Source: a virus
Lineage: Duplodnaviria; Heunggongvirae; Uroviricota; Caudoviricetes
Reading direction: 5' to 3' (one strand)
Virus record (IMG/VR): IMGVR_UViG_3300042549_006728
DNA: 64,000 nt
Shown: positions 3,286 to 44,865 of the stretch, piece after piece
Layout: each line of letters starts with the position of its first letter
Position numbering within the stretch: position 1 is the stretch's first letter
Position numbers and translations under genes: made by a program
Notes under the pieces: generated by a model
What the model saw: the letters and a program-made list of their open reading frames with translations, nothing else
What the model was told of the DNA's origin: nothing
Databases searched by the model: none

Positions 3286-3708
3286 TTATAATTTTATTTC
3301 GAACCTATCTTTCATTATTTGAATTTTGTCTTCAGGAACACCATGTTCATTTATACCTTCGTGTCTATTTTCTACAATAATTGAGAACACTTTATAATCA
3401 TACTGTTTTGCCAACTCATAATAACGTTCCATTTCCCATTCTTGTGTAAATGTATTAGAAACTGCAATCTCTCTGTAGAAGTTATCGTTAATCAGTGAAT
3501 CCTTCATATATGTTTCAACTGTATCCTGACAGAATTTATGTGCGTCTTTGATTTTACTAAAATCAAAATTATATTCTCCAGTCTCTTTATCGACAAAATA
3601 TTTGTCCGCCTCACAAACTAAAAAATCGTGTTCCACTAATCTTTTGGCGAATGTAGATTTACCTGAACCAGGTACTCCTCTTACAATATATAAAATTTTA
3701 TCATCCAT
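3286..3708 (-). CDS. P-loop kinase (polynucleotide-kinase-like)
   Basis: Walker A GVPGSGKST close to the N-terminus; about 140 aa; sits beside a phosphoesterase and an RNA ligase. Confidence 0.55.
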   Translation of the reverse strand: MDDKILYIVRGVPGSGKSTFAKRLVEHDFLVCEADKYFVDKETGEYNFDFSKIKDAHKFCQDTVETYMKDSLINDNFYREIAVSNTFTQEWEMERYYELAKQYDYKVFSIIVENRHEGINEHGVPEDKIQIMKDRFEIKL

Positions 3709-3726
3709 TTTATTCTGATTTAAAGG

Positions 3727-4017
3727 TTAACAACTTTCTTGATATTCTTTTCCTCCTTGTGTAATAGCATCTAATACTCTAAATAAAGGAACTAATATAG
3801 TACCATTGGTATAGACTTCTTCTTTATCTTTAAAACTATAATCAATTATAAAATCAATAATCTTAAGCTGCTCATCTGTCAATGTTGTAGAATCTAATCT
3901 ACTTTTTACAGATATATCATTTTTTATTTCTTCTTTGTCCATCTTATTTTGATTTAGGTAGTTTTTATTAGGATACGGATATTGCAATAATAGCGATAAA
4001 AGTAAACCATATGACAA
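3727..4017 (-). CDS. Hypothetical protein
   Basis: ORF only. Confidence 0.4.
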   Translation of the reverse strand: MSYGLLLSLLLQYPYPNKNYLNQNKMDKEEIKNDISVKSRLDSTTLTDEQLKIIDFIIDYSFKDKEEVYTNGTILVPLFRVLDAITQGGKEYQESC

Positions 4018-4047
4018 CTACGATTATTGTTACTAAATTTGGGTTTT

Positions 4048-4230
4048 TCATCTTTTATATATCAAATAAGTTACTACCAAAATAACGATTAAAAGTAATA
4101 CTGGTATCCACAATGGTGCAGTTACCCACCACCAACTCCAATCAACGTGATTAGTTAGTTTTAGAACCATAAAAATAAGGAATAGAATCATACCTAATCC
4201 TATCCCACTTGATGAACTGTTTTCACTCAT
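4048..4230 (-). CDS. Small membrane protein (2 TM, Trp-rich)
   Basis: ORF with hydrophobic segments. Confidence 0.35.
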   Translation of the reverse strand: MSENSSSSGIGLGMILFLIFMVLKLTNHVDWSWWWVTAPLWIPVLLLIVILVVTYLIYKR

Positions 4231-4244
4231 AATTTATTATTTAT

Positions 4245-4901
4245 TTATATTCTTTTTTCGTGATGATCTTTTGGTAAACATAATTTTTTAATTGGTTGAT
4301 TTTTAACAATGGTTAAAATTTCATCCAAAGATAAGGGACATAAATTATTACCATCTACACCCACATCCAATGATTTACCGTCACCCAATCTTAAATTAGT
4401 TGGTAGGTGTACGTGACCATGTAAATGTATTGTACCATCATTCATACTATCCCACGATGCAATTGGGTAGTGCATACAGACAAAAGAGTATTTGTCCATC
4501 AACCCCTTACCCAAAATAGATGGTCTACGAACATCTAAAAACAAATAGTCGTGTGTTGAGGAAAAAATATCTTGTATATCTTCTTTGTTTTTGCGAATGT
4601 GGTGATCGTGATTCCCATAAGTTAAATGAACATTCTTACAGATTATTCTATTACGAAATTCCTCTATTTTCTCAAATCCACCAAAACTCCAATCACCCAA
4701 ATGAATCAATACATCATCTTCACCAACAACCTCATTAATATTATTCACTAATGTGTCATTCATATGATTGAGTGAATTAAACTTACGTGTTAGCTTTTCT
4801 GCACCAACCCAACCAGTTGTTGCAGAACAAATATTTGCGTGATTATAATGTGTATCACTCGTAAAAAATAACCGTTGCCCTTTTTCTAATACTAATTTCA
4901 T
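4245..4901 (-). CDS. Calcineurin-like metallophosphoesterase
   Basis: Motifs DTHYNH, GDWSFGG, GNHDHH and GHVH. Confidence 0.8.
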   Translation of the reverse strand: MKLVLEKGQRLFFTSDTHYNHANICSATTGWVGAEKLTRKFNSLNHMNDTLVNNINEVVGEDDVLIHLGDWSFGGFEKIEEFRNRIICKNVHLTYGNHDHHIRKNKEDIQDIFSSTHDYLFLDVRRPSILGKGLMDKYSFVCMHYPIASWDSMNDGTIHLHGHVHLPTNLRLGDGKSLDVGVDGNNLCPLSLDEILTIVKNQPIKKLCLPKDHHEKRI

Positions 4902-4924
4902 TTTACAAATATATTTATAATTTT

Positions 4925-5575
4925 TTAATATTCCAAACTTTTAGGTAAAAATAATAGGGTTGGGTTCTTCTTTTGAATATCTAAGTTTGGGTATTCCTCT
5001 TTAAATTTCATCACGTCAAACTTCTTAGTGATTAAATGGTACCCATTTTTAGTTGGGATAATAGCTTCAATCTTTGGACCAACTTCATGTCCAATTGGTA
5101 TTCCTACCTCGTCAAATTTAACTTTGGTAATTGGATTACATTTATATTCAATAAATGCCATCATTACTGGACTAGGTATATGACTATCATCGATATCTAT
5201 AATCCACCTCTTCTCGTGAGTTTTAATTTGACCAACAACTGAGTCAAATAAACCTTGTTGTTTATCTACACCATCTCTAATACGTTCTGCCAGTATCGCC
5301 AACATATTAAGGGAAACATCCTTATGGTTTTGTTTCTGAACATGAATATATGCCCTCGCCTTAAACATTTCACAAAGTTGTTTAATCTCGTCATACCTCT
5401 TTTCAAGATGATCAATAGATTCTATACAGTAAGTTTTAATTGTTCTTACTGACTGATGATTATCTCTTTCCCCTTCAGGTTGATCCTTTTTACGTTTAAA
5501 AACATATAACATATAAAAATCACCTTTATCAGTGAAATGTAATAGTGGTTTTATTAATTCTAAGTTATCTATCAT
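4925..5575 (-). CDS. Hypothetical protein in the RNA-repair neighbourhood
   Basis: ORF with a 4-nt overlap to the RNA ligase gene. Confidence 0.5.
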   Translation of the reverse strand: MIDNLELIKPLLHFTDKGDFYMLYVFKRKKDQPEGERDNHQSVRTIKTYCIESIDHLEKRYDEIKQLCEMFKARAYIHVQKQNHKDVSLNMLAILAERIRDGVDKQQGLFDSVVGQIKTHEKRWIIDIDDSHIPSPVMMAFIEYKCNPITKVKFDEVGIPIGHEVGPKIEAIIPTKNGYHLITKKFDVMKFKEEYPNLDIQKKNPTLLFLPKSLEY

Positions 5576-6627
5576 AGTTTCCTAAATTTTGGTTTTAAAG
5601 CACTCCATATAATTTTATCATAATCTTTACCATCCCACATCGCAAACATAATTGCCTTTGCAATTGGATGGTGATTCTTAATATGTTCCGCAAATTCTTT
5701 CTTAGTTGGTTCTACTTCTATATCACCGTATTTACCAAATCTAAAATAATCATAAGTTTTACCTAGTTGGTTATAGTATTGGTACCAATGATACCCCAAA
5801 CTACTGGCGTAAGTTTTAATCTTACCATAAAATTCATCAGGAACATCTTTAAGAAAATCTTCTATTTTACCACCACTAGATAAAATTTCCCATACAGTTG
5901 TAGTTGATACATTTGTCATTATTTTATGTAATCTGAGATATTCTTCACCCTTTATCTTCATTCTGTCACCATTAGAAAATTTAACTACATAACCCTCTTC
6001 ATCATCTTTTATTATATTTTTTAAGGTAGTAAAATCAGTTATGCCATCATATTTTTTAACTACTCTGAATCCTATATTTTGAATTAAATTTTTTAATCTT
6101 AAATCTACATCTTCACTATGTAAGACAACTTCATTTTCGGTTTTAGTATTTATCATACCTAATAACACTAAATCCTCAAAATCATACTGTACCACTATTC
6201 GATTATCATCGTATATGATTTCAAATAAATAAGTATAATCTTTATGTAACTTATCGTAATCATATTTTTGTAATAAATCAAAACCCTTTATAGATTGTTC
6301 AGAAGTGAATGAACCTCTAGTTGCCAATACCCATTGATCACCATAATGAAATAGAATTCCTAATGAACCATCCATTTTATCATAAACGTCAAATTCAGAT
6401 GTGGTAGTATGTTTACCTTCTTCCATATTAAAGAATTTTTTAAATGGTCTACCAACAATATCACCATCGGAATTTGTTACTAATCCCCTACACATCAGAG
6501 TTATATTATCCCATAATGATTCGTATTGTACTTTTTCACTATAATTCCAAATAGTTAGATCCAAAGTAGGGTGAACTTGTTTATGTAATAAACCCTTATC
6601 AAAATATTCATTTAAAATTTCATTCAT
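5572..6627 (-). CDS. RNA ligase (Rnl1-like, ATP-dependent)
   Basis: Nucleotidyltransferase motif I YDKMDGSLG (KxDGSL); 351 aa. Confidence 0.75.
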   Translation of the reverse strand: MNEILNEYFDKGLLHKQVHPTLDLTIWNYSEKVQYESLWDNITLMCRGLVTNSDGDIVGRPFKKFFNMEEGKHTTTSEFDVYDKMDGSLGILFHYGDQWVLATRGSFTSEQSIKGFDLLQKYDYDKLHKDYTYLFEIIYDDNRIVVQYDFEDLVLLGMINTKTENEVVLHSEDVDLRLKNLIQNIGFRVVKKYDGITDFTTLKNIIKDDEEGYVVKFSNGDRMKIKGEEYLRLHKIMTNVSTTTVWEILSSGGKIEDFLKDVPDEFYGKIKTYASSLGYHWYQYYNQLGKTYDYFRFGKYGDIEVEPTKKEFAEHIKNHHPIAKAIMFAMWDGKDYDKIIWSALKPKFRKL

Positions 6628-6650
6628 AATGCAAATATACTATTTTTTTT
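6628..6650 (-). promoter_or_regulatory. Promoter-like TAnnTTTG motif abutting the ATG (leaderless?)
   Basis: Minus-strand reading is AAAAAAAAATAGTATATTTGCATT followed directly by ATG. Confidence 0.4.
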
Positions 6651-6654
6651 TATA

Positions 6655-6685
6655 TAAAAAAACCCACATATGTGGGTTTTTCTAA
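6655..6685. terminator. Bidirectional factor-independent terminator
   Basis: Hairpin aacccacat/atgtgggtt with T-runs on both strands. Confidence 0.6.
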
Positions 6686-6701
6686 ATATATGTTATTTTT
6701 T

Positions 6702-8216
6702 TTAAACATTTTCTAAAACCTTAGTCAATCTTTCTCTAATTTGAGTAAGGGTTGTTTGGTTATAAAATACACCATCTTCATAGATTGCTTTTAAATCACC
6801 AGTATTTTCACCCGACCAAGTTTGTTGATCAACTAATTTATACCCACCTTCACCTGTTGTTACTCTAAGTAATCCAGTTGCAGATTTTTTGGTACCATCG
6901 TCAGTGATTGGATCTTTGAATATTTCACGACCCTCAATTGAGAATGATGGACTTCCTGACTCCGCCATATGTTTAACTTCAACATAGGTTGCTTTCATTG
7001 CGAATCCAAATGTATCACGTGTGTTGTATTGGTAAGTGAATGAACCGATACCCAAAACAACATTTGTTGATGCAAATCCTTTTGCTTCTAATCTAGCGCA
7101 AATTTCATTTGCTCTATCGATTGTAATTGAGTCGCCATAGATTGCTCCGATATGTGGATCAAGTACTTTATAACCTTGTTCGTTTATTGTTCCACCGAAT
7201 ACATCCCAAAGCAATTCAATAACACCTTTAAGTTCAGGCATTAATTCGGTTCCTTTTTCATTACCTAATTTAATTCCACAAATAATATCAACTGGATCAC
7301 CAGAGTCAGGACGAATAACCAATTTACCATCACGACTCATAATTTCTTCTTTCAAAGTAACTACGTGTTCAGTACATACTTTCCACAAGTCCCATGTATC
7401 GGATACTACTGAAAGGATTCCAGTTGGGTATGTTTCTAATAATCTACGGAATGTTTCTATTTCATCTTCTTTACCACCAGCACACATTACTGAATGTTCT
7501 GTCGCATTTACTGAACCACCAACAAAACCTTCTTCACCGTAATATTTACGAGCCCCATAAATTGCTGGAAGTGAATCTGTTCCTGAGAATGATGTTAGAT
7601 GTCCAATACCTGATGAAATAGTTGCATCGATTGAGTCTAATCCTCTCATTGAGAAGTCGTGTCCTTGCCAATCAACAAACCAAGCTCTTTCAGTATCGGT
7701 TTTTTCTTGCCAAGATGTTAATACCTTTCTGTAGTTATGTGCAATGGTTGCTGAAGTCATTGGTTTCCAAAGTAAGTTAGAGATAATCGTCTCCAAATAA
7801 TTAGTTACCCAATAAAAATCAGGATGTGTATTGTAGATTGTTAACACAGGAATCTTTTCCCCAATTACAGAACCCTCCTCAATTGACTTTACCTTAATAG
7901 GTAAGTATTGTAAATCCCAAAGAGCTTCAAAATGTGATACATCATAATCTGTGTTAAGATACATAGATAATTCTTTTTTCATTTCTCCACAAACATGTTC
8001 TTTTGGTTGGTGGAAGAAATCTTTCTCGAATGATTCATGAATTATTTTCATAACCATTTGTTGACCAAAAGACACTATCTCTTTACAGTGTTTTGGTGCG
8101 TGTTTCAAACTTCTAGGTGTGAAATTTGAATAGACTAATGTTGTACCCTTTGGATACTGCTGATGATGTCCTGTTTTGTAACCATCTGTTAAAAGTAACG
8201 GATTGATGTTTCTCAT
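6702..8216 (-). CDS. nadV: Nicotinamide phosphoribosyltransferase (NAMPT/NadV)
   Basis: LLTDGYKTGHHQQYP N-terminus; 504 aa; family hallmarks are present along the full length. Confidence 0.9.
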   Translation of the reverse strand: MRNINPLLLTDGYKTGHHQQYPKGTTLVYSNFTPRSLKHAPKHCKEIVSFGQQMVMKIIHESFEKDFFHQPKEHVCGEMKKELSMYLNTDYDVSHFEALWDLQYLPIKVKSIEEGSVIGEKIPVLTIYNTHPDFYWVTNYLETIISNLLWKPMTSATIAHNYRKVLTSWQEKTDTERAWFVDWQGHDFSMRGLDSIDATISSGIGHLTSFSGTDSLPAIYGARKYYGEEGFVGGSVNATEHSVMCAGGKEDEIETFRRLLETYPTGILSVVSDTWDLWKVCTEHVVTLKEEIMSRDGKLVIRPDSGDPVDIICGIKLGNEKGTELMPELKGVIELLWDVFGGTINEQGYKVLDPHIGAIYGDSITIDRANEICARLEAKGFASTNVVLGIGSFTYQYNTRDTFGFAMKATYVEVKHMAESGSPSFSIEGREIFKDPITDDGTKKSATGLLRVTTGEGGYKLVDQQTWSGENTGDLKAIYEDGVFYNQTTLTQIRERLTKVLENV

Positions 8217-11682: not shown

Positions 11683-12417
11683 TTATAATTCAAATGTGGG
11701 TTTTAACCAAAGTCCTCTACTGAATATTAATTTAGTAAAACCTGGTATTCTTTGTTCCACCATACCAAATAAAGTTAATGTCGCCACAGTATCATGTTTC
11801 ATCATTTTTAAAACTTCCTCTCTGATTCTTTCTGCAGATACAACATCTTTAAGTTTATCCATTATTTCAGGTTGTTCCATAGCCCTAAAAATAGACTGGT
11901 GTATGAAGAATCCTTTAGTGATAGAAAATCTTAATGCCCTAAGAAATCTGAGTGGATCATCCATCATTGTTTGTTCGGCAGGTAAAGGAGTTTTTAGTAG
12001 TCTCGCACTTAAATGACCTTTACCGCCAAATAAATCAATTAGATTCCCATTTTCATCTTCCGCCATCGAATTCAATGTGAAATCTCTTCTAATTAGATCA
12101 TCTTCTAATGTCCCTAATTCTAAAATAGGTTGTCTAGTCCCTTCTTTGTAACCGACCTCTTTTCTTGCGAGAACAAAGTCCGCAACTAATCCTTCGTTAA
12201 CATCACCTTTAGGAAATTTAGCTCTGATAGTGAACATCTCTGGAGTAGAAAGGAATATAGTAAACTCTTTATGTTCCATCCATTGTTTCATTATTTCGAA
12301 ACCTTCATCTACTGTTCTATCTATGTTGTCGAGTACAAATGTGAAGTCAATATCTTTAGATTCAACACCTAAGATACTATCTCTTACACAACCACCAACT
12401 TTATATATCTGAGGCAT
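11683..12417 (-). CDS. tRNA nucleotidyltransferase (CCA-adding) / poly(A) polymerase head-domain protein
   Basis: GGCVRD...DIDF class II nucleotidyltransferase motif; 244 aa. Confidence 0.7.
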   Translation of the reverse strand: MPQIYKVGGCVRDSILGVESKDIDFTFVLDNIDRTVDEGFEIMKQWMEHKEFTIFLSTPEMFTIRAKFPKGDVNEGLVADFVLARKEVGYKEGTRQPILELGTLEDDLIRRDFTLNSMAEDENGNLIDLFGGKGHLSARLLKTPLPAEQTMMDDPLRFLRALRFSITKGFFIHQSIFRAMEQPEIMDKLKDVVSAERIREEVLKMMKHDTVATLTLFGMVEQRIPGFTKLIFSRGLWLKPTFEL

Positions 12418-12419
12418 AA

Positions 12420-12656
12420 CTATTCAGGTAATAATCCAACTCTCTCAATGAGATTCCAAACTCTTTCTTTGTATTGATCAACTGTTTCATCACCAATTTC
12501 AGTTATTCCACGATCAGTCATTTCAGCTAGATAATCTAAAAGTTCTCTAGTAACTTTATCGATATCTTCGATAGATAGTTCACCTCTCTTAACTCCGTTT
12601 TTTAGGATTTGGTACTTTACCATAACCATTTTAGAAACTTTTACACCCATAGTCAT
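12420..12656 (-). CDS. Hypothetical protein
   Basis: ORF only. Confidence 0.45.
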   Translation of the reverse strand: MTMGVKVSKMVMVKYQILKNGVKRGELSIEDIDKVTRELLDYLAEMTDRGITEIGDETVDQYKERVWNLIERVGLLPE

Positions 12657-12900
12657 TTGTTTTATTTTATCAAAGATATATATAATACTTCAATCTGCCA
12701 AATTTTTTGGTTATTTATATTGGTTATAAATAAGGTGATAGTGATGGAGTACCCGTCTCGCTCCAATCTTAAGTGCTTAATCGTAGTTTTACGAGGCCTC
12801 GGCACTGTCCTTTTCAGGGGGTGATGAATTCCTGATCCACTCTGGATTGTCGACATCCGTTGAGTGGGGAAAACCACTATCAGTATTTTAATTGTTTATG

Positions 12901-12974
12901 TGGTCCTTGTTGGAATCGAACCAACCACCTACTGATTATGAGTCAGTTGCTCTAACCGAATGAGCTAAAGGACC
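12901..12974 (-). tRNA. tRNA-Met (anticodon CAU)
   Basis: Hand-folded cloverleaf: acceptor GGTCCTT/AAGGACC, D GCTC-ATTCGGTTA-GAGC, anticodon loop CTCATAA, T-loop TTCGATT. Confidence 0.8.
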
Positions 12975-13135
12975 AATTAGCGGAGATTTCATCCCATCCA
13001 TTGATCACCCAAGGACTCGTTTCTAATGTATTTGGCACTCCGCCATTGTAAGTTTTCTGTTGCTTACGCCCTCATTCGTGGACTTCCGACATCCCAATGA
13101 GTTTTACCGTCCTATCGGAGTCAGGTAACCGCTTG

Positions 13136-13227
13136 TAGTCAGGACAGGACTCGAACCTGTATGTACAGTTATACAGAACTGCACATCCCTGTATGGATAT
13201 TTGCGTCTACCATTTCGCCACCTGACT
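13136..13227 (-). ncRNA. tRNA-like element with canonical acceptor, D and T arms but an atypical central module
   Basis: AGTCAGG-TG-GCGAAATGGTAGACGC ... ACAGG-TTCGAGT-CCTGT-CCTGACT-A. The middle carries two hairpins, one of them CAGTT-CTGTATA-AACTG. Confidence 0.45.
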
Positions 13228-13418
13228 ATAAAAACACACTCTTCAGCTTTCTACTTCCAGCTCCGAGAAATTATATATAACTTAGCCCATCTCACCGCTG
13301 TATGGGAACTGAAGTTTATGTGTCTTAAGGTTGAGAGCCTCTGTGTTGTAATGTTAATTCTACATTTACATTATTTATTACGTTTAATTCCTTTCTCAAG
13401 GGAACAACACAATAATTA

Positions 13419-13494
13419 TAGATAGGGTGGGATTCGAACCCACAATGAACAACCTTAAAAGGACTCGGCACCGTGCCTCATTACGCTCCTACCT
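13419..13494 (-). tRNA. tRNA-like, 76 nt, anticodon arm unresolved (loop contains UUUUAAG)
   Basis: T-arm GTGGG-TTCGAAT-CCCAC and acceptor AGGTAGG/CCTATCT. I could not fold a canonical anticodon stem. Confidence 0.3.
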
Positions 13495-13500
13495 ACACTG

Positions 13501-13577
13501 AACTACCCATAGGACTCGAACCTACAACCCTTCGGCCTTAGTGACCAATGTGCAAACCAATTTACACCATAAGTAGT
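13501..13577 (-). tRNA. tRNA-like with anticodon loop CACUAAG (possible CUA anticodon, A33 atypical)
   Basis: Acceptor ACTACTT/GGGTAGT, D GTGT..GCAC, anticodon stem TTGGT/GCCGA, T-arm GTAGG-TTCGAGT-CCTAT. Confidence 0.35.
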
Positions 13578-13673
13578 TAATCAAGAAAACATATCAGAAA
13601 TTACTGGTACCAAATCTCACTGCGATATATGATACATCTTCTTGTTAGGATTGGTTAATTACTCCTATCTTTG

Positions 13674-13745
13674 TACTCCCACGGAGAATCGAACTCCGAT
13701 TTTCAGGATGAAAACCTGATGTCCTAACCGTTAGACGATGGGAGC
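13674..13745 (-). tRNA. tRNA-Glu (UUC)
   Basis: Acceptor GCTCCCA/TGGGAGT, Glu-like D-arm TC-GTCT-AACGGTTAGGAC, anticodon stem-loop TCAGG-TTTTCAT-CCTGA. Confidence 0.7.
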
Positions 13746-13964
13746 AAATTGTGACAACCTTTGGGTTCGATTGTCACTTTTACGTGAAAGGAGTGATCAG
13801 ACCCTCTAACATCACGAGTGTAAGTTTTTCACATTAAACTATCTCTACAAAACGTCAGTTTTTATCGCCCTTAAACTGAATAAACGGTTTGACACTTTGT
13901 ATCCCCTTTTTTAAGTGCGTGATACATCTTCTCTCAAACTGAACTCTACTGAGAACACTCCCTG

Positions 13965-14036
13965 CGGTCTATGAGAGAATCGAACTCTCGGCACATCCGT
14001 GACAGGGATGTATGTTAGCCACTACACTAATAAACC
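13965..14036 (-). tRNA. tRNA-Asp (GUC)
   Basis: Acceptor GGTTTAT/ATAGACC, anticodon stem-loop CATCC-CTGTCAC-GGATG, T-arm GAGAG-TTCGATT-CTCTC. Confidence 0.75.
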
Positions 14037-14261
14037 AAGTTTCCCCACTCTGAGATTACAAGTGAGTAGTCGTATCGGTTTTTTTTCTATTTGAAAAACC
14101 TGATGGGCATCCCCGTTGAAAAAGTCAGCTCTATACGTCAGCAGTGCAGAACCTCGCTACTGTTATTCTGAATCGATTGCCTTAGGGAGGCGTTTTTTAA
14201 CCCTATCCATTGTTAAATGAGTCTTGGATAAAAGACTACTGAGTATCTCTTACTCATTATG

Positions 14262-14418
14262 TAGTTGGGGTAGGACTCGAACCTACATAAACACTTTGAA
14301 ATTTACCTACGCACCGTGAGGTAGTGTTCTTCATCATTTGCATTGCCTAACCATTGATCGATTTTACGTTTCGGCTGCCGTGCGTGTCAATAAGCGTCTA
14401 CCATTTCGCCACCCAACC
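14262..14418 (-). ncRNA. tRNA-like element with an insert of about 105 nt between the D-arm and T-arm
   Basis: GGTTGGG-TG-GCGAAATGGTAGACGC ... GTAGG-TTCGAGT-CCTAC-CCCAACT. The acceptor pairs cleanly. Confidence 0.45.
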
Positions 14419-14466
14419 ATACTACATCTCCTTTCGATTCTATAAGGAATCTACTCCGTTCTGTTG

Positions 14467-14540
14467 TACACCCGCCAGGATTCGAACCTGGGACCTATTC
14501 ATTAGAAGTGAATTGCTCTATCCAGCTGAGCTACGGGTGC
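14467..14540 (-). tRNA. tRNA-Arg (UCU)
   Basis: GCACCCG-TA-GCTC-AGCTGGATA-GAGC-A-ATTCA-CTTCTAA-TGAAT-AGGTC-CCAGG-TTCGAAT-CCTGG-CGGGTGT. Confidence 0.85.
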
Positions 14541-14759
14541 AAATAAAAGATGATAAATGGATTTATCAGGAATCTGGCTATAACCATAAACACTTCCTAT
14601 AATTTCTATACTATTGTCATTAGCGTATATGAGCTTCACACACCATTAGAGAGTCGGGTTGTTACATCAATACAATTAAGATCGAATACCTTTCCTTAGT
14701 GTGTACCTTTGCGTCACGTCTCTCCACGCTTACCATTCTACGCTTTGTATCATCTTTTG

Positions 14760-14843
14760 TACTCGAATCGGGACTTGAACCCGAACGGGCAATTGCCCAC
14801 AAGATTTTAAGTCTGGCGTGTCTACCGATTCCACCATCCGAGC
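14760..14843 (-). tRNA. tRNA-Leu (UAA), type II
   Basis: GCTCGGA-TG-GTGGAATCGGTAGACAC-G-CCAGA-CTTAAAA-TCTGG, then variable arm GGGCAATTGCCC, then T-arm. Confidence 0.85.
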
Positions 14844-15021
14844 TTATGAGGGTGAGAAGTCCTCTGTGTTGTGAGTTTTAGAACCAAAGGAACCGCACCC
14901 ATCCATCCTTTCTCAAGGGAACAACACAATATTCTTTATAACCAATATGTCAATGAACTTATTTTCTTTTTCAAAGTTAAATATAAAAAACCAAATTGTC
15001 AATTATTTTTAAACTTTTTTT

Positions 15022-15282
15022 TTATTTCCTTTTTGATAATATGTCATCAATCTTCTGTAATGTTTCTGGATCTGTTATTGGTAAAAGAGAAATAATATCT
15101 AATCGTGTTTTCATTTCTTCTTTTAACCCCCAACCACTACCACAGGTTTTTGCTTGTTCACCAAACATATTAATAAACTGATCCTCAACAACACTTCTCA
15201 ATGGATAATCACCACCAAAAGGTACTTTACTTCTGTCAATAGGACCTATTTTACAAAACCAATATTCTAAATTATTTTCCAT
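15022..15282 (-). CDS. Hypothetical protein
   Basis: 86-aa ORF inside the tRNA island. Confidence 0.45.
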   Translation of the reverse strand: MENNLEYWFCKIGPIDRSKVPFGGDYPLRSVVEDQFINMFGEQAKTCGSGWGLKEEMKTRLDIISLLPITDPETLQKIDDILSKRK

Positions 15283-15374
15283 TTATTTTATTTTTTGTAG
15301 TTAGAGTAGAACTCTAACCTACGACTTAGATATTATGAGGATCTAGATATACCACTGTTCTACCCCGATATATA

Positions 15375-15644
15375 TTATTTCAATAAACTTATAACATACG
15401 GTTTAAATATGGTTAATTTAGTTCCGTCTGAATTATAATACCAGACAGAATCCTTGTTCATACCGTATATCGTATCAGTATATGCAACTGCTGGTCGAAG
15501 TTCTTGTGTTACATTTACTTCATTCCAATCAACTTGTCTTTCGATCATGACTGGAACTTGACCTTCAATTTTGTACTTATAAGTTTTACCTTTACAAGAA
15601 AGGAATAAAACCGTTAATACTGTTGTATAAAATACCTTTTTCAT
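15375..15644 (-). CDS. Putative lipoprotein
   Basis: Signal peptide with lipobox MKKVFYTTVLTVLFLSC. Confidence 0.5.
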   Translation of the reverse strand: MKKVFYTTVLTVLFLSCKGKTYKYKIEGQVPVMIERQVDWNEVNVTQELRPAVAYTDTIYGMNKDSVWYYNSDGTKLTIFKPYVISLLK

Positions 15645-15658
15645 AACTATTTGTTTTG

Positions 15659-15775
15659 TAGTCAGAACAGGATTCGAACCTGTGTTTACACTTTACTTGT
15701 ATTAGTTGTGTCCGATAGATTGGGTATCAATACATTTCCCGCACCACCTGCTCTTAACCACTGAGCTACCTGACT
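15659..15775 (-). ncRNA. tRNA-like element with a type-I D-arm and an insert of about 65 nt replacing the anticodon arm
   Basis: AGTCAGG-TA-GCTC-AGTGGTTA-GAGC-A ... ACAGG-TTCGAAT-CCTGT-TCTGACT. Confidence 0.45.
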
Positions 15776-15869
15776 ATTTTATTTAACGATTCGGAAACCA
15801 ATATTCCCCTATATAGTAACCATTTTCATTACACCATTGTTCTAATTCATTCATAATTTTTATTTTTTG

Positions 15870-15994
15870 TAGTCAGGACAGGATTCGAACCTGTATGATA
15901 ACTTATGAGCAGTCTTAACGGGTCTTTCGAGGTTACTCGCGTTATCTTTACTATTAACCTTTATTCATGCGTCTACCAATTCCGCCACCTGACT
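15870..15994 (-). ncRNA. tRNA-like element with a central insert of about 74 nt
   Basis: AGTCAGG-TG-GCGGAATTGGTAGACGC ... ACAGG-TTCGAAT-CCTGT-CCTGACT. Confidence 0.45.
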
Positions 15995-15999
15995 ATTTG

Positions 16000-16194
16000 T
16001 TAATCTTGTCTTGAGTTAATATAACCAAATACATTTTCACCAAAAACAGATTTCATTGCCGTTTCAAAAATGTAATGGTTGTAATCATTGTCTTCATAGT
16101 ATTCTTCATCATTATCAACGAAATCAAGGTATTCTTGACAGATTTTTTTTAATTCATCTAAATTTGGTTTTTCTAATTGATGTGGTTTTTCCAT
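16000..16194 (-). CDS. Small acidic hypothetical protein
   Basis: ORF only. Confidence 0.4.
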   Translation of the reverse strand: MEKPHQLEKPNLDELKKICQEYLDFVDNDEEYYEDNDYNHYIFETAMKSVFGENVFGYINSRQD

Positions 16195-16210
16195 GTTATT
16201 TTATTTTTTG

Positions 16211-16292
16211 TAGTCAGGACAGGATTCGAACCTGTAACATAACAATCGCTTTCAACCTTCTAGTTAGCGTCTACCAATTCCGCCACCTGACT
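16211..16292 (-). ncRNA. tRNA-like element of tRNA length with no foldable anticodon arm
   Basis: Same acceptor, D and T sequences as the 15870 element. The 31-nt middle (TAACTAGAAGGTTGAAAGCGATTGTTATGTT) has no 5-7-5 hairpin. Confidence 0.45.
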
Positions 16293-16336
16293 ATATTAAA
16301 AAGGGAGTGATGTTAACGACTCACCCCCATTATTTA

Positions 16337-17284
16337 TTACTTAATGTTTAGGAATGTTCCTGATCCACCTGCTACAGTAGTTGGTAATTTTCCATCCCAT
16401 TTCTGAGCCTTTAAAAACTCAACGTATAAAGGTGTAATCTCTTTTTGTTTGAGTTTCATTGTTAAGGCAGATGCTTGTGCATCAATCACTGATTTCGCAG
16501 AATCACCTCTAGCAATTGCAATTTTCTCAAACGCCTCTGCCTGTGCAACCAAAGTACGTTGCTGAGCCGCCTGTGCCTCTTGTACCGCTTTAGTTTTACC
16601 TTCGATAGCTTTTTGTAGTGACTTAGGTGGGATAATATTAGTACGTAACTGAGATACTGTAAACCACTTAGATACTCTTTTATTACACTCCACTATGATA
16701 GCTGATTCAAATTCTTCTCTTTTATTAAAGATTGCGTCAACTTCCCAACGATTGGCTACATCATTAACAGATGATACGATAGCGTTCTTTAACCATCCCT
16801 GCTCAATCTCTTTAATGTCTAATCGAAGGTTGGTAAACATATCCCCAATCGCATCTTCTCTAAGTGAATAGTTAAAAGACGGTTTGATTGTTGCGGCAAA
16901 CCCACCTTTTGTGATAACTTGTTGTGCATCGTACTCAATGTGTTGTTGAAACAGTGGGAATTCTTTTACTTGTTCCGTCCAATCGTTATAAACAACCCAT
17001 CCTGTTTTGTACTGATACTTTGCAACACCTCTTTCAGAACCAGTTAAATTAACTTTAAGTCCTTTGTTACCCGCATCAATTCTCTCAATTGCGAATGGTT
17101 GTAATAATCCAACCAAAATCGATAAAAATAAAATTCCGATAGGTTTTACTAACCACTTTGAGTTAAAATTGTCACTATCATCACCCCATCGATCCTTTCC
17201 TGTAATATACATTACATCTTTTGTTGTAAACGCAGTAAATACTGCGACTAATAACCCAATAATAAAAATACTAAATCCAATCAT
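16337..17284 (-). CDS. SPFH/band-7 (prohibitin/HflC-like) membrane protein
   Basis: N-terminal TM helix and a coiled-coil AQAEAFEKIAIARGDSAKSVIDAQA band-7 C-terminal region. Confidence 0.6.
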   Translation of the reverse strand: MIGFSIFIIGLLVAVFTAFTTKDVMYITGKDRWGDDSDNFNSKWLVKPIGILFLSILVGLLQPFAIERIDAGNKGLKVNLTGSERGVAKYQYKTGWVVYNDWTEQVKEFPLFQQHIEYDAQQVITKGGFAATIKPSFNYSLREDAIGDMFTNLRLDIKEIEQGWLKNAIVSSVNDVANRWEVDAIFNKREEFESAIIVECNKRVSKWFTVSQLRTNIIPPKSLQKAIEGKTKAVQEAQAAQQRTLVAQAEAFEKIAIARGDSAKSVIDAQASALTMKLKQKEITPLYVEFLKAQKWDGKLPTTVAGGSGTFLNIK

Positions 17285-29311: not shown

Positions 29312-29459
29312 TTAAATGATAATCAGGATTAGATTATATACGTGCTCTACCAACTGAGCTACCGCCGCCCCGAAGGACAACGGACAGGATTCGAACCTGC
29401 GACACCGAGCTTAAAAGGCTAATGTAATTGTTGCTGAAACAATCCTTTTATTATCATTT
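29312..29459 (-). ncRNA. Y RNA-like / circularly permuted tRNA-like RNA (YrlA-type candidate)
   Basis: Terminal stem AAATGATAAT...GGATT pairs with AATCC...ATTATCATTT, with an internal bulge. Internally the RNA order is T-arm GCAGG-TTCGAAT-CCTGT, then the hairpin CCGTTGTCC-TTCG-GGGCGGCGG (acceptor-like stem capped by a UUCG loop), then D-arm TA-GCTC-AGTTGGTA-GAGC. A second hairpin ATTGT-TTCAGCA-ACAAT is also present. Confidence 0.55.
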
Positions 29460-29460
29460 G

Positions 29461-29546
29461 AGGAAGAGGTAGGATTCGAACCTACGGTACCTTTCAGTAC
29501 GCTAGTTTTCAAGACTAGTACAATAAACCAACTCTGTCACTCTTCC
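29461..29546 (-). tRNA. tRNA-Ser (UGA), type II
   Basis: Acceptor GGAAGAG/CTCTTCC, anticodon stem-loop CTAGT-CTTGAAA-ACTAG, variable arm GTAC-TGAAAG-GTAC. Confidence 0.8.
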
Positions 29547-36985: not shown

Positions 36986-37051
36986 TAAAGGGCCGATAGG
37001 ATCACTATCAACTTCCACCACTTCGTTTTTAAGGAACAAAGAAACCTAATG

Positions 37052-37449
37052 TGGAGATGGAGGGAGTCGAACCCTCGTCCAATCAAATTGCCATTAAAAA
37101 TTCATTCACAAGCTTAGTTCATTTTTCTTAATGAACAAAATATTTGGTTTTATTTATAACATGGTTACCAACAACCCTGTTTCGATAATTGTTTAGAGAG
37201 TTTTACCGTCAACTCTATTTTTTACACCTTTCTGTTTCTAGGTAAGTGTGACCCACCGATTAAACTAATTCCATTAATTCAATCTCTTCAACCACCGCTG
37301 AGCGAGTGATAGAAGTTGGGATACTCATCATATCCTCTGTGTTGTATGCGTTTGCATTTATATTTTGATAGGTGTTTAAGGGTTTCCATCTAACCCTGCT
37401 TGCATCATTTCAAACTCAACCTTTGACTGTCAAATCCAAAACCATCCCC
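37052..37449 (-). ncRNA. ssrA: tmRNA (SsrA)
   Basis: 5' end GGGGATGGTTTTGGATTTGACAG..., 3' end ...GAGGG-TTCGACT-CCCTC-CATCTCC-A. Acceptor GGGGATG/CATCTCC with G3:U70. GCA-AAC-GCA-TAC... resume frame at about nt 95. About 398 nt. Confidence 0.8.
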
Positions 37450-44307: not shown

Positions 44308-44349
44308 GTTATAAAATAAAAAAGGGAAAGTATTTCTACTCTCCCTTTT
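44308..44349 (-). terminator. Factor-independent terminator (minus strand) closing the rsr transcription unit
   Basis: aaaggga...tcccttt hairpin followed on the minus strand by TTTTATTTTAT. Confidence 0.55.
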
Positions 44350-44865
44350 AAATTTTGGTGTCGGAATGGTGATCCTTCTTTTATTTTCGGTGGTAGAGTA
44401 CCCACCCTAAGTATTTTAATCCGTTCTAGTTCGGATGTCTTATTATTTAGTTGAGACAAAACCAACTACTATTTTTTACTTGTAGTAAACAAGAGGTATG
44501 TTTTACGACCTAAAGTGTAGGGGTTTCCTACGTTTAAACTCTCCTATGGTCGCCACTTTATATTTTTTTTCGAGTAAAGTGGTAAAACTCTGATCTATCT
44601 GCTTTTTTTCTAGTAAGTGTTTGCAGAAACCATTCGTTTATCGGACTTAAAGGGAATTCGTATATTCCCAATCCATTACACCTAATAACATTGTGGTATC
44701 GGAATTGTCTGACACTTTACATAACTCTGAGTGGTCCCCCGCTTTCACGGTTTACACCCTTATGGTTATATGGGTTATCAAAGCCCCTCTTTCTTAGCTG
44801 AATTGTAGTTTTTTAATTTTGCTGCAATTATTCCTTAGCTACCACAAATATTTTCAAAGAACTTA
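44350..44865 (-). ncRNA. Structured non-coding region 3' of rsr; candidate Y RNA locus
   Basis: About 516 nt with no long ORF, between the rsr stop and the terminator. Local GC enrichment and multiple perfect hairpins (GGGAAT-ATACGA-ATTCCC, GGTGG-GTACTCTA-CCACC, CCACTTTA...TAAAGTGG) plus a GTCCGA motif. Confidence 0.35.

Follow-up and report, generated by a model that had tools for sequence, protein, structure and literature searches.

What kind of RNA keeps the acceptor, D and T arms of a tRNA while carrying unrelated sequence where the anticodon arm should be? The question is raised by a 64,000-nt stretch of tailed-phage DNA (IMG/VR record IMGVR_UViG_3300042549_006728; here called the window), in which an earlier note had listed five such elements on the minus strand; sequence and scanner both confirm them. 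E1 (13136..13227, 92 nt) combines an AGTCAGG frame with a 42-nt insert, or cargo, folding as two hairpins; E2 (14262..14418, 157 nt) has a GGTTGGG/CCCAACT frame and a structured 107-nt cargo; E3 (15659..15775, 117 nt) an AGTCAGG acceptor stem, a class-I D arm and 66 nt of cargo; E4 (15870..15994, 125 nt) the AGTCAGG frame and a 74-nt cargo (ATGAATAAAGGTTAA…GAGTAACCTCGAAAGACCC…); and E5 (16211..16292, 82 nt) the AGTCAGG frame, a Leu-type D arm and 31 nt of cargo, where insert length is the span between D arm and T stem. The 7-bp acceptor stem, A73, D arm and T arm are present in all five, with U3:A70 and an intact D arm, and the inserts are short and diverse; as the note had held, a usable anticodon arm is absent from every one.

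The Rfam tRNA covariance model (gathering score 29) scores E5 at 43.8 bits, E3 at 43.7, E1 at 40.3 and E4 at 39.1; in its alignments to E5 and E3, most or all of the anticodon arm becomes a local insertion (19 and 61 nt). E2 was not detected by this model; the scanner finds its perfect 7-bp acceptor stem, Leu-type D arm and T arm. Four copies of the 27-nt 3' half occur in the window at ≤1 mismatch, against 0.00 in dinucleotide shuffles. Standard ARAGORN calls only E1 among the five, as 'tRNA-???' with a 4-base anticodon. When introns are allowed, it forces E2 to E5 into Gly, Pro, Leu and Phe tRNAs, placing at position 33/34 'introns' that measure 62, 26, 43 and 4 nt; the four solutions do not agree with one another.

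Two further aberrant tRNA-like elements, not listed in the earlier note, lie nearby on the same strand. X7 (13419..13494) is another member of the family (22.7 bits with the Rfam tRNA model), with an AGGTAGG/CCTATCT frame, a non-standard D region and cargo AGCGTAATGAGGCACGGTGCC…; its seven versions carry five different acceptor sequences, one of them AGTCAGG, and all are 7/7 paired. X8 (13501..13577) is a 77-nt tRNA-like sequence with a paired acceptor stem, a T arm and the non-standard anticodon loop CACTAAG; neither ARAGORN nor Rfam calls it, and it has a homologue in locus L126 and is missing, through an indel, from the close relative L141. A suspected sixth relic at about 15301-15370 proved real: R6 (15299..15369, minus strand) is a degenerate tRNA(CAT)-like sequence with a D arm, a CAT stem-loop, the T loop TTAGAGT and an unpaired acceptor stem, called tRNA-Met(cat) by ARAGORN at a relaxed threshold only. 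It is conserved in L141 and has the ACTACAAAAAATAAAATAA-ATG trailer seen at E4 and E5. Elsewhere the window encodes a tmRNA (37049-37449), an RNA-repair set (Rnl1-type ligase, kinase, phosphatase and CCA enzyme), and a YrlA-like RNA (29312-29478) with T arm, closed acceptor stem, D arm and long bulged terminal stem, whose tRNA-like module is matched at 29341-29407 with the diagnostic closed acceptor stem. A DUF2828/DUF7788 protein (44866-46281) weakly matches solved 'TROVE domain-containing protein' chains (E = 0.0024), and its gene is followed directly by some 530 nt of conserved, structured sequence.

The elements are packed among small minus-strand ORFs and tRNA genes. A 64-aa ORF (16000..16194) lies between E5 and E4, its start 16 nt past E5 and its stop 5 nt short of E4; a 23-aa mini-ORF (15783..15854), identical in L141, follows E4 by 15 nt and stops 7 nt before E3; an 89-aa ORF with a lipoprotein-like N-terminus (15375..15644) starts 14 nt after E3; and an 86-aa ORF (15022..15282), whose homologue in Leptolyngbya phage Lbo-JY46 sits within an ordinary gene array, starts about 18 nt after R6. 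E5, E4, E3 and R6 occupy the whole intergenic space, with the next ATG 14-18 nt downstream; the upstream stop precedes E4 and E3 by 5-7 nt and R6 by about 5 nt, whereas E5 lies about 44 nt after the upstream ORF, with a terminator-like hairpin between. In the family as a whole, 63/200 elements have an ORF start 5-35 nt downstream, compared with 54/352 canonical tRNAs (p = 1.3e-5), with a preferred spacing of 14-16 nt; the ORFs that follow are small and diverse (58 distinct sequences, median 72 aa). Two thirds of family members, E1 and E2 among them, have no adjacent ORF.

The elements and the real tRNAs of the same phages have matching processing contexts. Canonical tRNAs for Leu(taa) (14759-14843), Arg(tct) (14466-14540), Asp (13964-14036), Glu (13673-13745) and Met (12900-12974) are on the minus strand, and elements and canonical tRNAs share an N73-CA trailer and an A-N-A-T leader. 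T occupies position -1 in 83% of elements, 69% of canonical tRNAs of the same phages and 30% of background, and A at -2 and -4 is similarly common to both kinds of gene. Where a canonical tRNA lies no more than 1 kb away, which is so for 86 elements, element and tRNA always point the same way. No CCA is encoded in either the island tRNAs or the elements; directly downstream of the island is the gene for a 244-aa nucleotidyltransferase (11683..12417, minus strand; CCA-adding/poly(A) polymerase head domain, Pfam PolyA_pol E = 4.7e-18).

The frame AGTCAGG…ACAGGTTCGAATCCTGTCCTGACTA is phage-specific and widespread, and essentially missing from cellular genomes and cultured phages. More than 140 phage contigs in IMG/VR carry it, with some 200 different inserts (236 copies, 198 distinct, at 141 catalogued loci), and its exact 3' half occurs on at least 120 IMG/VR contigs; among 185,579 cellular species genomes we found it on 16 contigs, all of them MAGs with inconsistent taxonomy, and no cultured phage carries it. 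The family was collected by an exact 3'-half pattern, which in part accounts for the nucleotide uniformity of the AGTCAGG frame. Discriminator A is found in 191/197 tallied elements of the AGTCAGG family, the T loop TTCGAAT in 154/195, and T at position 48, beside otherwise unconstrained cargo ends, in 164/195. By one pattern the D arm is Leu-type in 111/198 members, and in 133/195 it begins TGG[C/T]G[G/A]AA. Near-canonical members on the same frame are rare, an example being the 73-nt tRNA-Thr(tgt)-like gene of locus L095, and a few copies have gained or lost a single base in the 3' half.

The frame helices are under RNA-level selection. This was seen among relatives retrieved through their cargo, not through their frame, and it bears out the covariation that the earlier note had proposed to look for in related phages. 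Acceptor stems are 7/7 paired over three to five different sequences per class (5/5 relatives in the E2 class, 8/10 in E3, 14/17 in E4 and 7/7 in X7), the T stem shows compensatory change in all four of these classes, and the D stem does so in classes E3 and E4. In one E3 version both the acceptor stem (TTCGGTG/CACCGAA) and the D stem (ATTC/GAAT) are fully compensated.

The inserts are conserved as well. All five window cargos recur in other phages, at 86-100% identity even with unrelated flanks; of 84 same-cargo pairs, 33 have random identity in both flanks, and their median cargo identity is still 86%. The 31-nt cargo of E5 is 100% identical in L208, where the flanks are unrelated and the sole difference from E5 within the element is an A-to-T change in the T stem; E1 cargo has an identical copy in L212, again between unrelated flanks. 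The E4 class comprises 19 distinct versions in IMG/VR, borne on three different covarying acceptor/T-stem frames, with a mean column identity of 90% (15 aligned members) and a putative anticodon region that varies in length among homologues; the E3 class has 10 distinct versions. E2 cargo, in 16 distinct versions, is found on three different acceptor frames and also free-standing, with no tRNA frame and closed instead by a plain covarying stem. It contains a covarying helix and a covarying palindrome: 94.8% of alignment cells are paired (82.9% in shuffles), covariation scores 0.338 where shuffles give 0.103 and 0/500 reach the observed value, and in one helix six of seven pairs show double changes. 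These comparisons show that the cargo, as judged from its sequence, is a functional RNA, and with the covarying frame they lend strong support to the note's view of a selected tRNA top half around a free central module. A closing helix on the cargo is not enriched (terminal pairing 3.22 bp, compared with 3.10 bp in shuffles), and thermodynamic stability is unremarkable for four of the five window cargos. No cargo yielded a target or partner: antisense matches in the window do not exceed chance, and for 14 element-rich loci the 150 matches listed, of 198, are all to tRNA.

The inserts also behave as cassettes, with close relatives bearing different inserts at the same site. L141 is 97-100% identical to the window across aligned blocks of the RNA island, and in it the E5 and E1 cargos are cleanly replaced, with breakpoints inside the frames; at E5 not only the cargo but also the 3' half and the ORF downstream (16000..16194) are replaced. 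At the E1 site, four relatives carry four different cargos, one of which is that of E2.

This is apparently an undescribed and very large family in uncultured phages, pairing one tRNA frame with hundreds of interchangeable RNA inserts. We think it probable that E1 to E5 and X7 are separate small-RNA genes, all belonging to one large phage family, the frame being a handle for processing and stability, the insert a cargo, and the repeated frames a means of cassette swapping. The parts kept (7-bp acceptor stem, A73, U8, D arm with G18G19, U48, and T arm with TTCGAAT loop) are the ones that give a tRNA its L-shape and that tRNA-processing enzymes recognise, while the anticodon arm and variable region are replaced by some 20-130 nt of cargo, itself a conserved RNA module. 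The elements would be transcribed together with neighbouring tRNAs, cleaved by RNase P at the 5' end and trimmed at the 3' end after A73, and would receive CCA from the adjacent phage nucleotidyltransferase; the predicted outcome is a stable L-shaped RNA displaying its cargo. At the DNA level the near-identical frame halves would act as portable homology, through which we propose that cargos and adjacent small ORFs are exchanged between co-infecting phages, giving a hypervariable RNA island. That the cargos are many, strongly conserved and yet quickly replaced between near-identical genomes suggests effectors acting on host or competitor factors.

The insert could also be read as unconstrained filler, with only the tRNA top half mattering, the frame then being a cleavage signal that sets the 5' and 3' ends of small mRNAs and neighbouring RNAs, as in mitochondrial tRNA punctuation, and a repeated homology that shuffles gene cassettes like the PeSLs of T4-type phages. 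The filled intergenic spaces and short distances to stop and ATG, the enrichment and diversity of small ORFs downstream, and swap breakpoints inside frames all agree with this; yet inserts conserved in unrelated contexts are no filler, the E2 insert covaries and stands alone, and most members have no ORF to punctuate, so that we rate this account unlikely. About one third of members do abut ORFs, twice the rate for canonical tRNAs, and a role in mRNA punctuation or expression is therefore inseparable from the cargo role. A little less likely still, the frame itself might be the effector, as a chargeable tRNA mimic or decoy whose leucylated form binds or titrates LeuRS, EF-Tu, the ribosome or aminoacyl-tRNA-dependent transferases, or which soaks up host nucleases that target tRNA in defence. 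In E. coli, LeuRS does not read the anticodon, and its identity set is A73, a Leu-type D arm, G18G19 and A15:U48. The frame keeps this set, and leucylation would therefore be possible: Leu-type D arms are frequent (the D arm TGGCGGAATTGGTAGACGC we take to be the same sequence as that of E. coli tRNA-Leu), A73 is nearly invariant and U48 conserved, and the RNA-repair set is typical of phages under tRNA-directed defence. Against this, the E3 and X7 classes have other D regions on the same acceptor/T frame, and a decoy role leaves hundreds of strongly conserved, class-specific cargos unexplained.

The idea of a selected RNA on a tRNA scaffold has thus held up, but none of the three specific mechanisms that the earlier note offered for it (Y RNA-like effectors, tRNA-miRNA chimeras of the gammaherpesvirus kind, and intron-containing tRNAs) is borne out. 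A Y RNA reading gains some interest from the TROVE-like DUF2828/DUF7788 protein, which the elements might tether to effectors through the variable insert; Ro/TROVE proteins use tRNA-like RNAs and are encoded by some large phages. We consider it improbable: E1 to E5 have no Rfam YrlA match at E≤5, their ends are open and form a plain 7-bp acceptor stem rather than a bulged Ro-binding helix, and they lie 30 kb from the DUF2828 gene, which has a structured stretch beside it, in a phage with a proper YrlA-like RNA elsewhere. Introns, removed by self-splicing or by the phage kinase, phosphatase and ligase to leave decoding tRNAs, would accommodate the ARAGORN calls for E2 to E5, the Rnl1-type ligase and kinase, and the near-canonical gene of L095. 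They are more doubtful again, since those calls disagree, no anticodon stem can be rebuilt and the residual ones do not pair, the E4-class anticodon region is of variable length, the 'exon' part of E2 cargo belongs to the frame-free module, and over the whole family the ARAGORN 'anticodons' spread across 20 types. To our knowledge, position 33/34 is no intron site. At about 200 nt upwards, group I introns are much longer than the inserts; Rfam reports no intron family in the region. The note's own counter-reading, decaying pseudogenes from duplication in a tRNA array, could point to the truly degenerate R6 and to the few copies with indels, but we give it hardly any credence: frame and cargos are conserved over more than 140 contigs, all three frame helices show compensatory changes, and cargos are identical in unrelated contexts.

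Our preferred reading, small-RNA genes with interchangeable cargo on a tRNA frame, has partial parallels. T4 species 1 (rnaC) and species 2 (rnaD) are likewise non-decoding RNAs (119-139 nt) whose genes sit within a phage tRNA cluster, on the tRNA strand, and in rnaC the ends pair, the T arm is canonical (CCGGGUUCGAAUCCCGG) and the interior is large and structured; rnaC differs in lacking a D arm and in its weak acceptor pairing, and the Rfam tRNA model matches neither T4 RNA. We know of no function for this pair and of no family of interchangeable inserts. In YrlA Y RNAs (RF02553), T arm, D arm and acceptor-like stem make up a module derived from tRNA. These RNAs are recognised by tRNA enzymes and occur in phages encoding Ro/TROVE proteins; their acceptor stem is loop-closed, and the RNA ends, on the anticodon side, form the Ro-binding stem (PMC4201824). 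The topology of E1 to E5 is the inverse. tmRNA also joins a tRNA-like acceptor/T domain to a long functional insert at the site of the anticodon arm and is processed and charged like a tRNA; it has a reduced D region, the alanine identity pair G3:U70, pseudoknots and a tag reading frame, whereas E1 to E5 have an intact D arm, U3:A70 and short, diverse inserts. In the TMERs of MHV68, too, a viral tRNA-like element is the processing handle for another small RNA, but there the hairpins come after the tRNA-like part, from which RNase Z frees them, and the setting is eukaryotic Pol III transcription, while the cargo of E1 to E5 is internal.

At the DNA level there is an analogy with the PeSLs of T4-type phages (promoter/stem-loop elements) and with integron attC (recombinase sites): the small variable genes of a hyperplastic region sit between short conserved repeats, and these repeats are where exchanged cassettes begin and end, as breakpoints here fall in frames. 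The phage repeats differ in being RNA genes, with helices under RNA-level selection and no dedicated recombinase evident. The design of Ponchon and Dardel reportedly keeps the acceptor, D and T arms, with the result that the chimera is processed by tRNA enzymes and accumulates stably; its cargo is said to be grafted on the anticodon stem as a closing helix. This 'tRNA scaffold' is used for recombinant RNA expression (PMC3753655, PMC3401473). Both systems put an RNA of interest in place of the anticodon arm, with the same insertion site and retained parts; the scaffold is man-made, whereas the phage elements replace the variable region too, show no enrichment of a closing helix and are only predicted to be processed. 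If our reading is true, these elements would be the natural counterpart of that engineered scaffold.

The phage represented by the window is large, with 28 tRNA genes and a tmRNA, and is without a close relative among cultured phages. Its minus-strand RNA island at 12.9-16.3 kb holds five ordinary tRNAs (Leu-taa, Arg-tct, Asp, Glu, Met) together with five tRNA-framed elements: E1 (13136-13227, 92 nt), E2 (14262-14418, 157 nt), E3 (15659-15775, 117 nt), E4 (15870-15994, 125 nt) and E5 (16211-16292, 82 nt), all on the minus strand. The earlier note had reported acceptor, D and T arms in each, and this observation is confirmed as written; the acceptor stem is paired at 7/7 positions and followed by A73 in 5/5 elements. 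The acceptor is AGTCAGG/CCTGACT in E1, E4 and E5, AGTCAGG/TCTGACT in E3 and GGTTGGG/CCCAACT in E2; the D arm reads TGGCG(G/A)AAT(T)GGTAGACGC in E1, E2, E4 and E5 and TAGCTCAGTGGTTAAGAGC in E3; the D arms include G18G19, and the T arms have a T-Psi-C-type loop, either TTCGAAT or TTCGAGT. Four copies of the 27-nt 3' half are present in the window, where shuffles predict 0.00. Within this frame of retained tRNA arms, inserts (cargos) of 31-107 nt take the place of the anticodon arm and variable region.

The Rfam tRNA model (RF00005) aligns to E1, E3, E4 and E5 at 39.1-43.8 bits (gathering score 29), in local alignment only, and has no match to E2; these scores show the elements to be tRNA-derived, not that they decode. 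In the two alignments displayed most or all of the anticodon arm is skipped: E5 retains 3/5 anticodon-stem pairs around a 19-nt insertion, and in E3 the arm is wholly unaligned, with a 61-nt insertion. ARAGORN in normal mode calls only E1 among the five, with an 'anticodon' of 4 bases. With introns allowed it again finds no canonical arm, returning Gly, Pro, Leu and Phe solutions with 'introns' of 62, 26, 43 and 4 nt, each at position 33/34, which follow no consistent isotype and are forced fits. As had been claimed from the sequence, then, neither ARAGORN nor the Rfam alignments reveal in E1-E5 a standard anticodon arm, with 5-bp stem, 7-nt loop, U33 and 3-nt anticodon.

The degenerate CAT relic R6, suspected earlier, does lie at ~15299-15369, with its acceptor stem unpaired. 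The island also contains two aberrant tRNA-like elements absent from the earlier note, X7 (13419-13494, minus strand) and X8 (13501-13577, minus strand, 77 nt). The acceptor and T arms of X8 are good, and its anticodon-type hairpin has the loop CACTAAG, in which CTA is present but U33 is missing. X8 is called by neither ARAGORN nor Rfam, and a homologue in another phage locus (L126) is 88% identical.

The frame is widespread among uncultured phages. An exact search with the 3' half (ACAGGTTCGARTCCTGTYCTGACTACA) finds it in at least 120 IMG/VR contigs, and over all loci retrieved the catalogue of AGTCAGG-frame elements comprises 236 (198 distinct) at 141 loci, with lengths of 54-311 nt (median 103). 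The 198 distinct members have in common the conserved top half of a tRNA and, between D arm and U48, a conserved insert specific to each class. The search pattern was the 3' half alone; the 5' half, outside the pattern, in most cases reads TGGCGGAAT(T)GGTAGACGC, which is a D arm of the tRNA-Leu type. The ~200 distinct cargos on this one frame come from ~2 Mb sampled. The few ARAGORN 'anticodons' in the family scatter across 20 types, and near-canonical members are rare, such as a 73-nt Thr(tgt)-like gene in locus L095; these rare members suggest that the family descended from real tRNA genes.

Among 185,579 species genomes the frame pattern is found in only 16 contigs, 16/16 of them from MAGs; their taxonomy is scattered, about half being Bacteroidota, so they are probably mis-binned phage DNA. 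The INPHARED collection holds no cultured phage with the frame. This rarity and absence, including absence from isolate genomes, exclude a remnant of a host tRNA or of an attachment site (attP). A MITE-like transposable element was likewise rejected, since target-site duplications are missing on either side of the copies, all of which run in the same direction as the tRNAs.

To avoid circularity, relatives were retrieved through the insert, and the frame was then inspected; a covariation test of the acceptor anchored on the D arm had caught mostly ordinary tRNA-Leu genes, and cargo-anchored tests were used instead. Acceptors of the class sharing the E2 cargo (GGTTGGG, AGTCAGG, AGCCATG) are fully paired in 5/5 cases. 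Those of the E3 class, which include TTCGGTG/CACCGAA with D stem ATTC/GAAT, are fully paired in 8/10, and those of the X7 class, with five different acceptor sequences, in 7/7. Members of the E4 class carry AGTCAGG, AGTGAGG/CCTCACT with T stem ACAAG/CTTGT, or TTTAGGG/CCCTGAA with T stem GTAGG/CCTAC and D stem GTGC/GCAC, and 14/17 of the whole class are fully paired. In the exceptions from the E4 class and in one from the E3 class the 3' half has a single-base indel; in the other E3-class exception the acceptor pairs at 6/7 positions, with one mismatch. Compensatory changes keep the acceptor paired in relatives, and the frame is under selection as RNA. The tRNA core is maintained as well: position 48, the base before the T stem, is T in 164/195 members, while the positions 3-6 bases upstream of it are of near-uniform composition. 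This is as the tertiary pair A15:U48 of a Leu-type tRNA core would demand.

The surroundings of the elements also resemble those of tRNAs. In the 5' leaders of family members, position -1 is T (83%), -2 is A (71%) and -4 is A (73%), compared with 69%, 61% and 67% for canonical tRNAs of the same loci and a background of 30% T. After the discriminator the 3' trailer starts with CA in elements and canonical tRNAs alike, and none encodes CCA. Where a canonical tRNA lies within 1 kb of an element, the two share a strand in 86/86 cases, and multi-copy loci have all their copies on one strand. The gene immediately downstream of the island (11683-12417, minus strand) encodes a 244-aa nucleotidyltransferase that belongs to the CCA-adding / poly(A) polymerase family. 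RNase P prefers U at -1 and recognises an acceptor/T-arm minihelix, and CCA-less tRNAs require 3' trimming and CCA addition; from these rules, the leader and trailer sequences, the co-orientation and the adjoining enzyme, we infer that the elements may be matured like tRNAs. A set of RNA-repair and NAD-salvage genes occupies 3286-8216 and 11683-12417 (minus strand), with an AAA_33 kinase, a metallophosphatase, an Rnl1-type RNA ligase and the CCA-adding-type enzyme; the NAD-salvage member matches, by DNA similarity only, phage genes annotated as nicotinamide/nicotinate phosphoribosyltransferase.

Far from being filler, the inserts are conserved modules. Homologues of each of the five window cargos exist elsewhere, and as frame stems covary and the cargos recur in other phages, the proposal of a selected tRNA scaffold with a free central module has strong support. 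The E5 cargo is 100% identical in one locus (L208) and the E1 cargo in another (L212), with unrelated flanks in both, and the limits of similarity coincide with the element ends. Among same-cargo pairs, 33/84 have both 40-nt flanks at random-level identity (below 60%; random median 55%), with a median cargo identity of 86%. Nineteen distinct versions are known for the E4 class, with mean column identity of 90% (15 aligned members) and most cargo positions invariant, 10 for the E3 class and 16 for the E2 cargo. Diversity is nevertheless large, the 328 distinct non-canonical elements (a few scanner artefacts included) falling into 267 clusters, of which 230 are singletons.

The E2 cargo motif (14290-14395, minus strand, inside E2) recurs in loci L028, L100, L183, L187, L189, L191, L194 and L198. 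In its alignment the proposed structure has 94.8% of cells paired versus 82.9% in shuffles, and a covariation score of 0.338 versus 0.103 in shuffles that was reached by 0/500 of them; one helix shows double changes at 6/7 pairs. Two invariant TGCG-containing segments might pair alternatively with ACGCAC. A 4-nt palindrome varies (GCGC, CGCG, TCGA, GTAC) and is palindromic in every version; because its paired bases are adjacent, intermolecular pairing fits better than a hairpin, which suggests that these RNAs may homodimerise through a kissing contact. The module also occurs without any tRNA frame, either bearing a plain covarying 8-10-bp closing stem that is sometimes followed by a U run, or placed directly after another element. 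As an RNA motif the E2 cargo is both structured and autonomous.

Terminal closing helices are not in excess on the cargos, so a uniform architecture of anticodon stem plus insert is rejected. Rfam scans returned only tRNA and noise for the island region at E<=5, and at the gathering threshold only tRNA among the best 150 of 198 matches in 14 element-rich loci. A role of the cargos as antisense regulators of the phage's own genes was discarded, since their longest complementarity to the 64-kb window is 11-13 nt, the same as for shuffled cargos.

Each cargo is conserved in a gene-like manner, yet is swapped between near-identical genomes. Relatives retrieved through the neighbouring nucleotidyltransferase include three loci syntenic with the window (L141, L142, L143). 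Aligned island blocks of L141 are 97-100% identical to the window, compared with ~94% for the flanking protein-coding DNA. Differences within the island are clean-cut. In L141 one block, made up of the E5 cargo, the 3' half of E5 and the ORF after it, is replaced as a whole, identity being lost just past the 5' frame half of E5 and resuming with that of E4; the E1 cargo is replaced between two retained frame halves; and whole modules are present in one genome and absent from the other, among them X8, which L141 lacks. The E1 site, marked by a conserved upstream leader, bears four different cargos in four related phages, one of which (L139) has the E2 cargo there on an AGTCAGG frame. This leader module of ~100 nt (13228-13330, minus strand; ACACATAAACTT…CCCATACAGCGGTGAGATGGGCTAAGTT…GAGTGTGT) is also found upstream of or beside elements in L137, L139, L141, L007, L081 and L098.

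An adjoining ORF is about twice as common for family members as for canonical tRNAs: 63/200 elements have an ORF start 5-35 nt downstream, versus 54/352 canonical tRNAs (p = 1.3e-5), with a modal spacing of 14-16 nt. For E5, E4, E3 and R6 the next ATG is 14-18 nt away; E4, E3 and R6 begin 5-7 nt past the preceding stop, and E5 comes ~44 nt after the Band_7 ORF upstream of it, with a terminator-like hairpin immediately before it. Counts from a promoter and terminator scan were no different from those of shuffles. The downstream ORFs are small, mutually unrelated and almost all singletons, and the idea that a conserved protein is encoded after the frame was dropped on this ground and because the homologue of an 86-aa product has no tRNA-like neighbour. 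The latter's ORF (15022-15282, minus strand), which follows R6, has 75% nucleotide identity to a hypothetical gene of Leptolyngbya phage Lbo-JY46, located there in an ordinary gene array.

The island has other peculiar RNA features. Spacers after its tRNA-Leu, Arg, Asp and Glu genes (13580-14760, minus strand) are unusually long, at 200-300 nt, and 99-100% conserved in L141; a motif common to them, (A/G)AGATG(T)A(T/G)(C)A, follows shortly behind each tRNA. Compared with the island, a second tRNA cluster at 28.4-31.7 kb is closely packed. A second RNA family of constant frame and variable centre is represented at 13340-13415 and 14866-14935 (minus strand), in which GTGTTGTTCCCTTGAGAAAGGA and ACAACACAGAGGACTTCTCAYCCTCA enclose 30-90 variable nt. 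Its 15 distinct copies in the loci usually lie just upstream of a tRNA or an AGTCAGG element, and its GTGTTGT/ACAACAC and TGAGAA/TTCTCA complementarities cross in a pseudoknot-like manner; in L141 the centre of the 14.9-kb copy is replaced by that of the window's other copy.

We lean towards a two-layer picture in which the tRNA frame is a handle, the insert is the working part, and the frame repeats allow cassette exchange. At the RNA level, the top half and core would let host and phage tRNA enzymes excise the element from the island transcript and would stabilise it, leaving the insert to do the work. At the DNA level, repeated frame halves would provide short homologies for swapping cargos, along with adjacent small genes, between phages, and such exchange would account for near-identical genomes that differ exactly at the cargos. 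One main rival would make the frame only punctuation and a recombination signal; this agrees with the adjacency to ORFs and is at odds with the conservation of the cargos. The same conservation finds no account in the other main rival, that the frame is itself a chargeable Leu-tRNA mimic or decoy, with which A73, the Leu-type D arm and U48 agree, and for which the other D regions of the E3 and X7 classes are a further difficulty. Beyond the handle-and-cargo picture, a bolder proposal that we hold only tentatively, and think rather unlikely as a whole, is a display library: hundreds of structured RNA effectors on one maturation-hijacking tRNA frame, cassette-exchanged among uncultured, probably Bacteroidota-infecting phages, with the cargos serving as decoys, sponges or aptamers against host factors. 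Such a library would be an RNA counterpart to integron gene cassettes or anti-defence islands and, together with its cassette exchange, could prove to be something categorically new.

The specific identities offered earlier for E1-E5 fared less well. Intron-containing tRNAs are not supported, given the inconsistent ARAGORN isotypes, the variable length of the putative anticodon region in the E4 class and the 'exon' part of E2, which belongs to the module also found free-standing; Rfam reported no group I or II intron families in the island region at gathering score or E<=5. A tRNA-miRNA chimera is not supported either: in those chimeras the small RNA lies downstream of the tRNA-like part, not within it, unlike the internal cargo here. 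As for Y RNA effector-like RNAs, the Rfam YrlA model has no match in 12500-16800 at E<=5 and the topology is opposite, the ends of E1-E5 forming a plain 7-bp acceptor stem and not the long bulged Ro/Rsr-binding helix; the TROVE-like DUF2828 gene (44866-46281) is ~30 kb away. Nor do E1-E5 fit tmRNA, which has a G3:U70 pair for alanine identity, a tag reading frame and pseudoknots: their position 3:70 is U:A, and the sole match to the Rfam tmRNA model in the window is at 37049-37449 (minus strand, 113 bits), with an unusually long predicted tag, ANAYNTEDMMSIPTSITRSAVVEEIELMELV.

The window itself supplied a positive control for the YrlA search, a match at 29341-29407 (33.2 bits, short of the gathering score of 69; E = 7.9e-6 when 221 nt were searched) comprising T arm, 9-bp closed acceptor stem with UUCG loop, and D arm. 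This is the core of a YrlA-like RNA (29312-29478, minus strand) between tRNA-Ser and tRNA-Asp in the second tRNA cluster, whose fold has in addition a long bulged terminal 5'/3' stem, in agreement with the architecture described for YrlA. The DUF2828/DUF7788 protein weakly matches solved TROVE-domain chains, and directly downstream of its gene a ~530-nt noncoding stretch (44330-44865, minus strand), ending in a terminator, is conserved in five relatives, several of its hairpins having changed in a compensatory way; it probably represents a large structured ncRNA. The YrlA-like RNA, the DUF2828 protein and this stretch are better candidates for a Ro-type RNP than E1-E5.

If expressed, the elements would constitute a large unexplored repertoire of phage small RNAs, overlooked by tRNA finders and not in Rfam, and a ready-made natural source of foldable RNA modules, the E2 cargo among them, whose structure and function could be studied; they would also represent a new way in which phage accessory regions evolve by modules. 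There is also a warning for annotation: calls of 'tRNA-???' and of odd-length or intron-containing tRNAs in phages may be such elements.

We class the elements among tRNA-derived non-decoding RNAs. To our knowledge only isolated cases of non-decoding tRNA-like RNAs in phages are known (T4 species 1, phage Y RNAs), and full-text searches of the literature gave no account of a phage tRNA-frame family with interchangeable inserts. tmRNA and YrlA are also tRNA-derived RNAs with large additions, but E1-E5 have the distinguishing features of neither. The closest natural analogue is T4 species 1 RNA (rnaC), a 139-nt stable RNA in the T4 tRNA cluster, which is undetected by the Rfam tRNA model and has a canonical T arm and weak terminal pairing without a D arm. 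The only descriptions known to us of the tRNA scaffold as a means of stabilising arbitrary RNAs are of a laboratory design, which appears here to be in natural, large-scale use. The engineered scaffold follows the same logic as the proposed handle and cargo, and as a closing helix is not a general feature of the cargos here, the likeness is functional, not exact.
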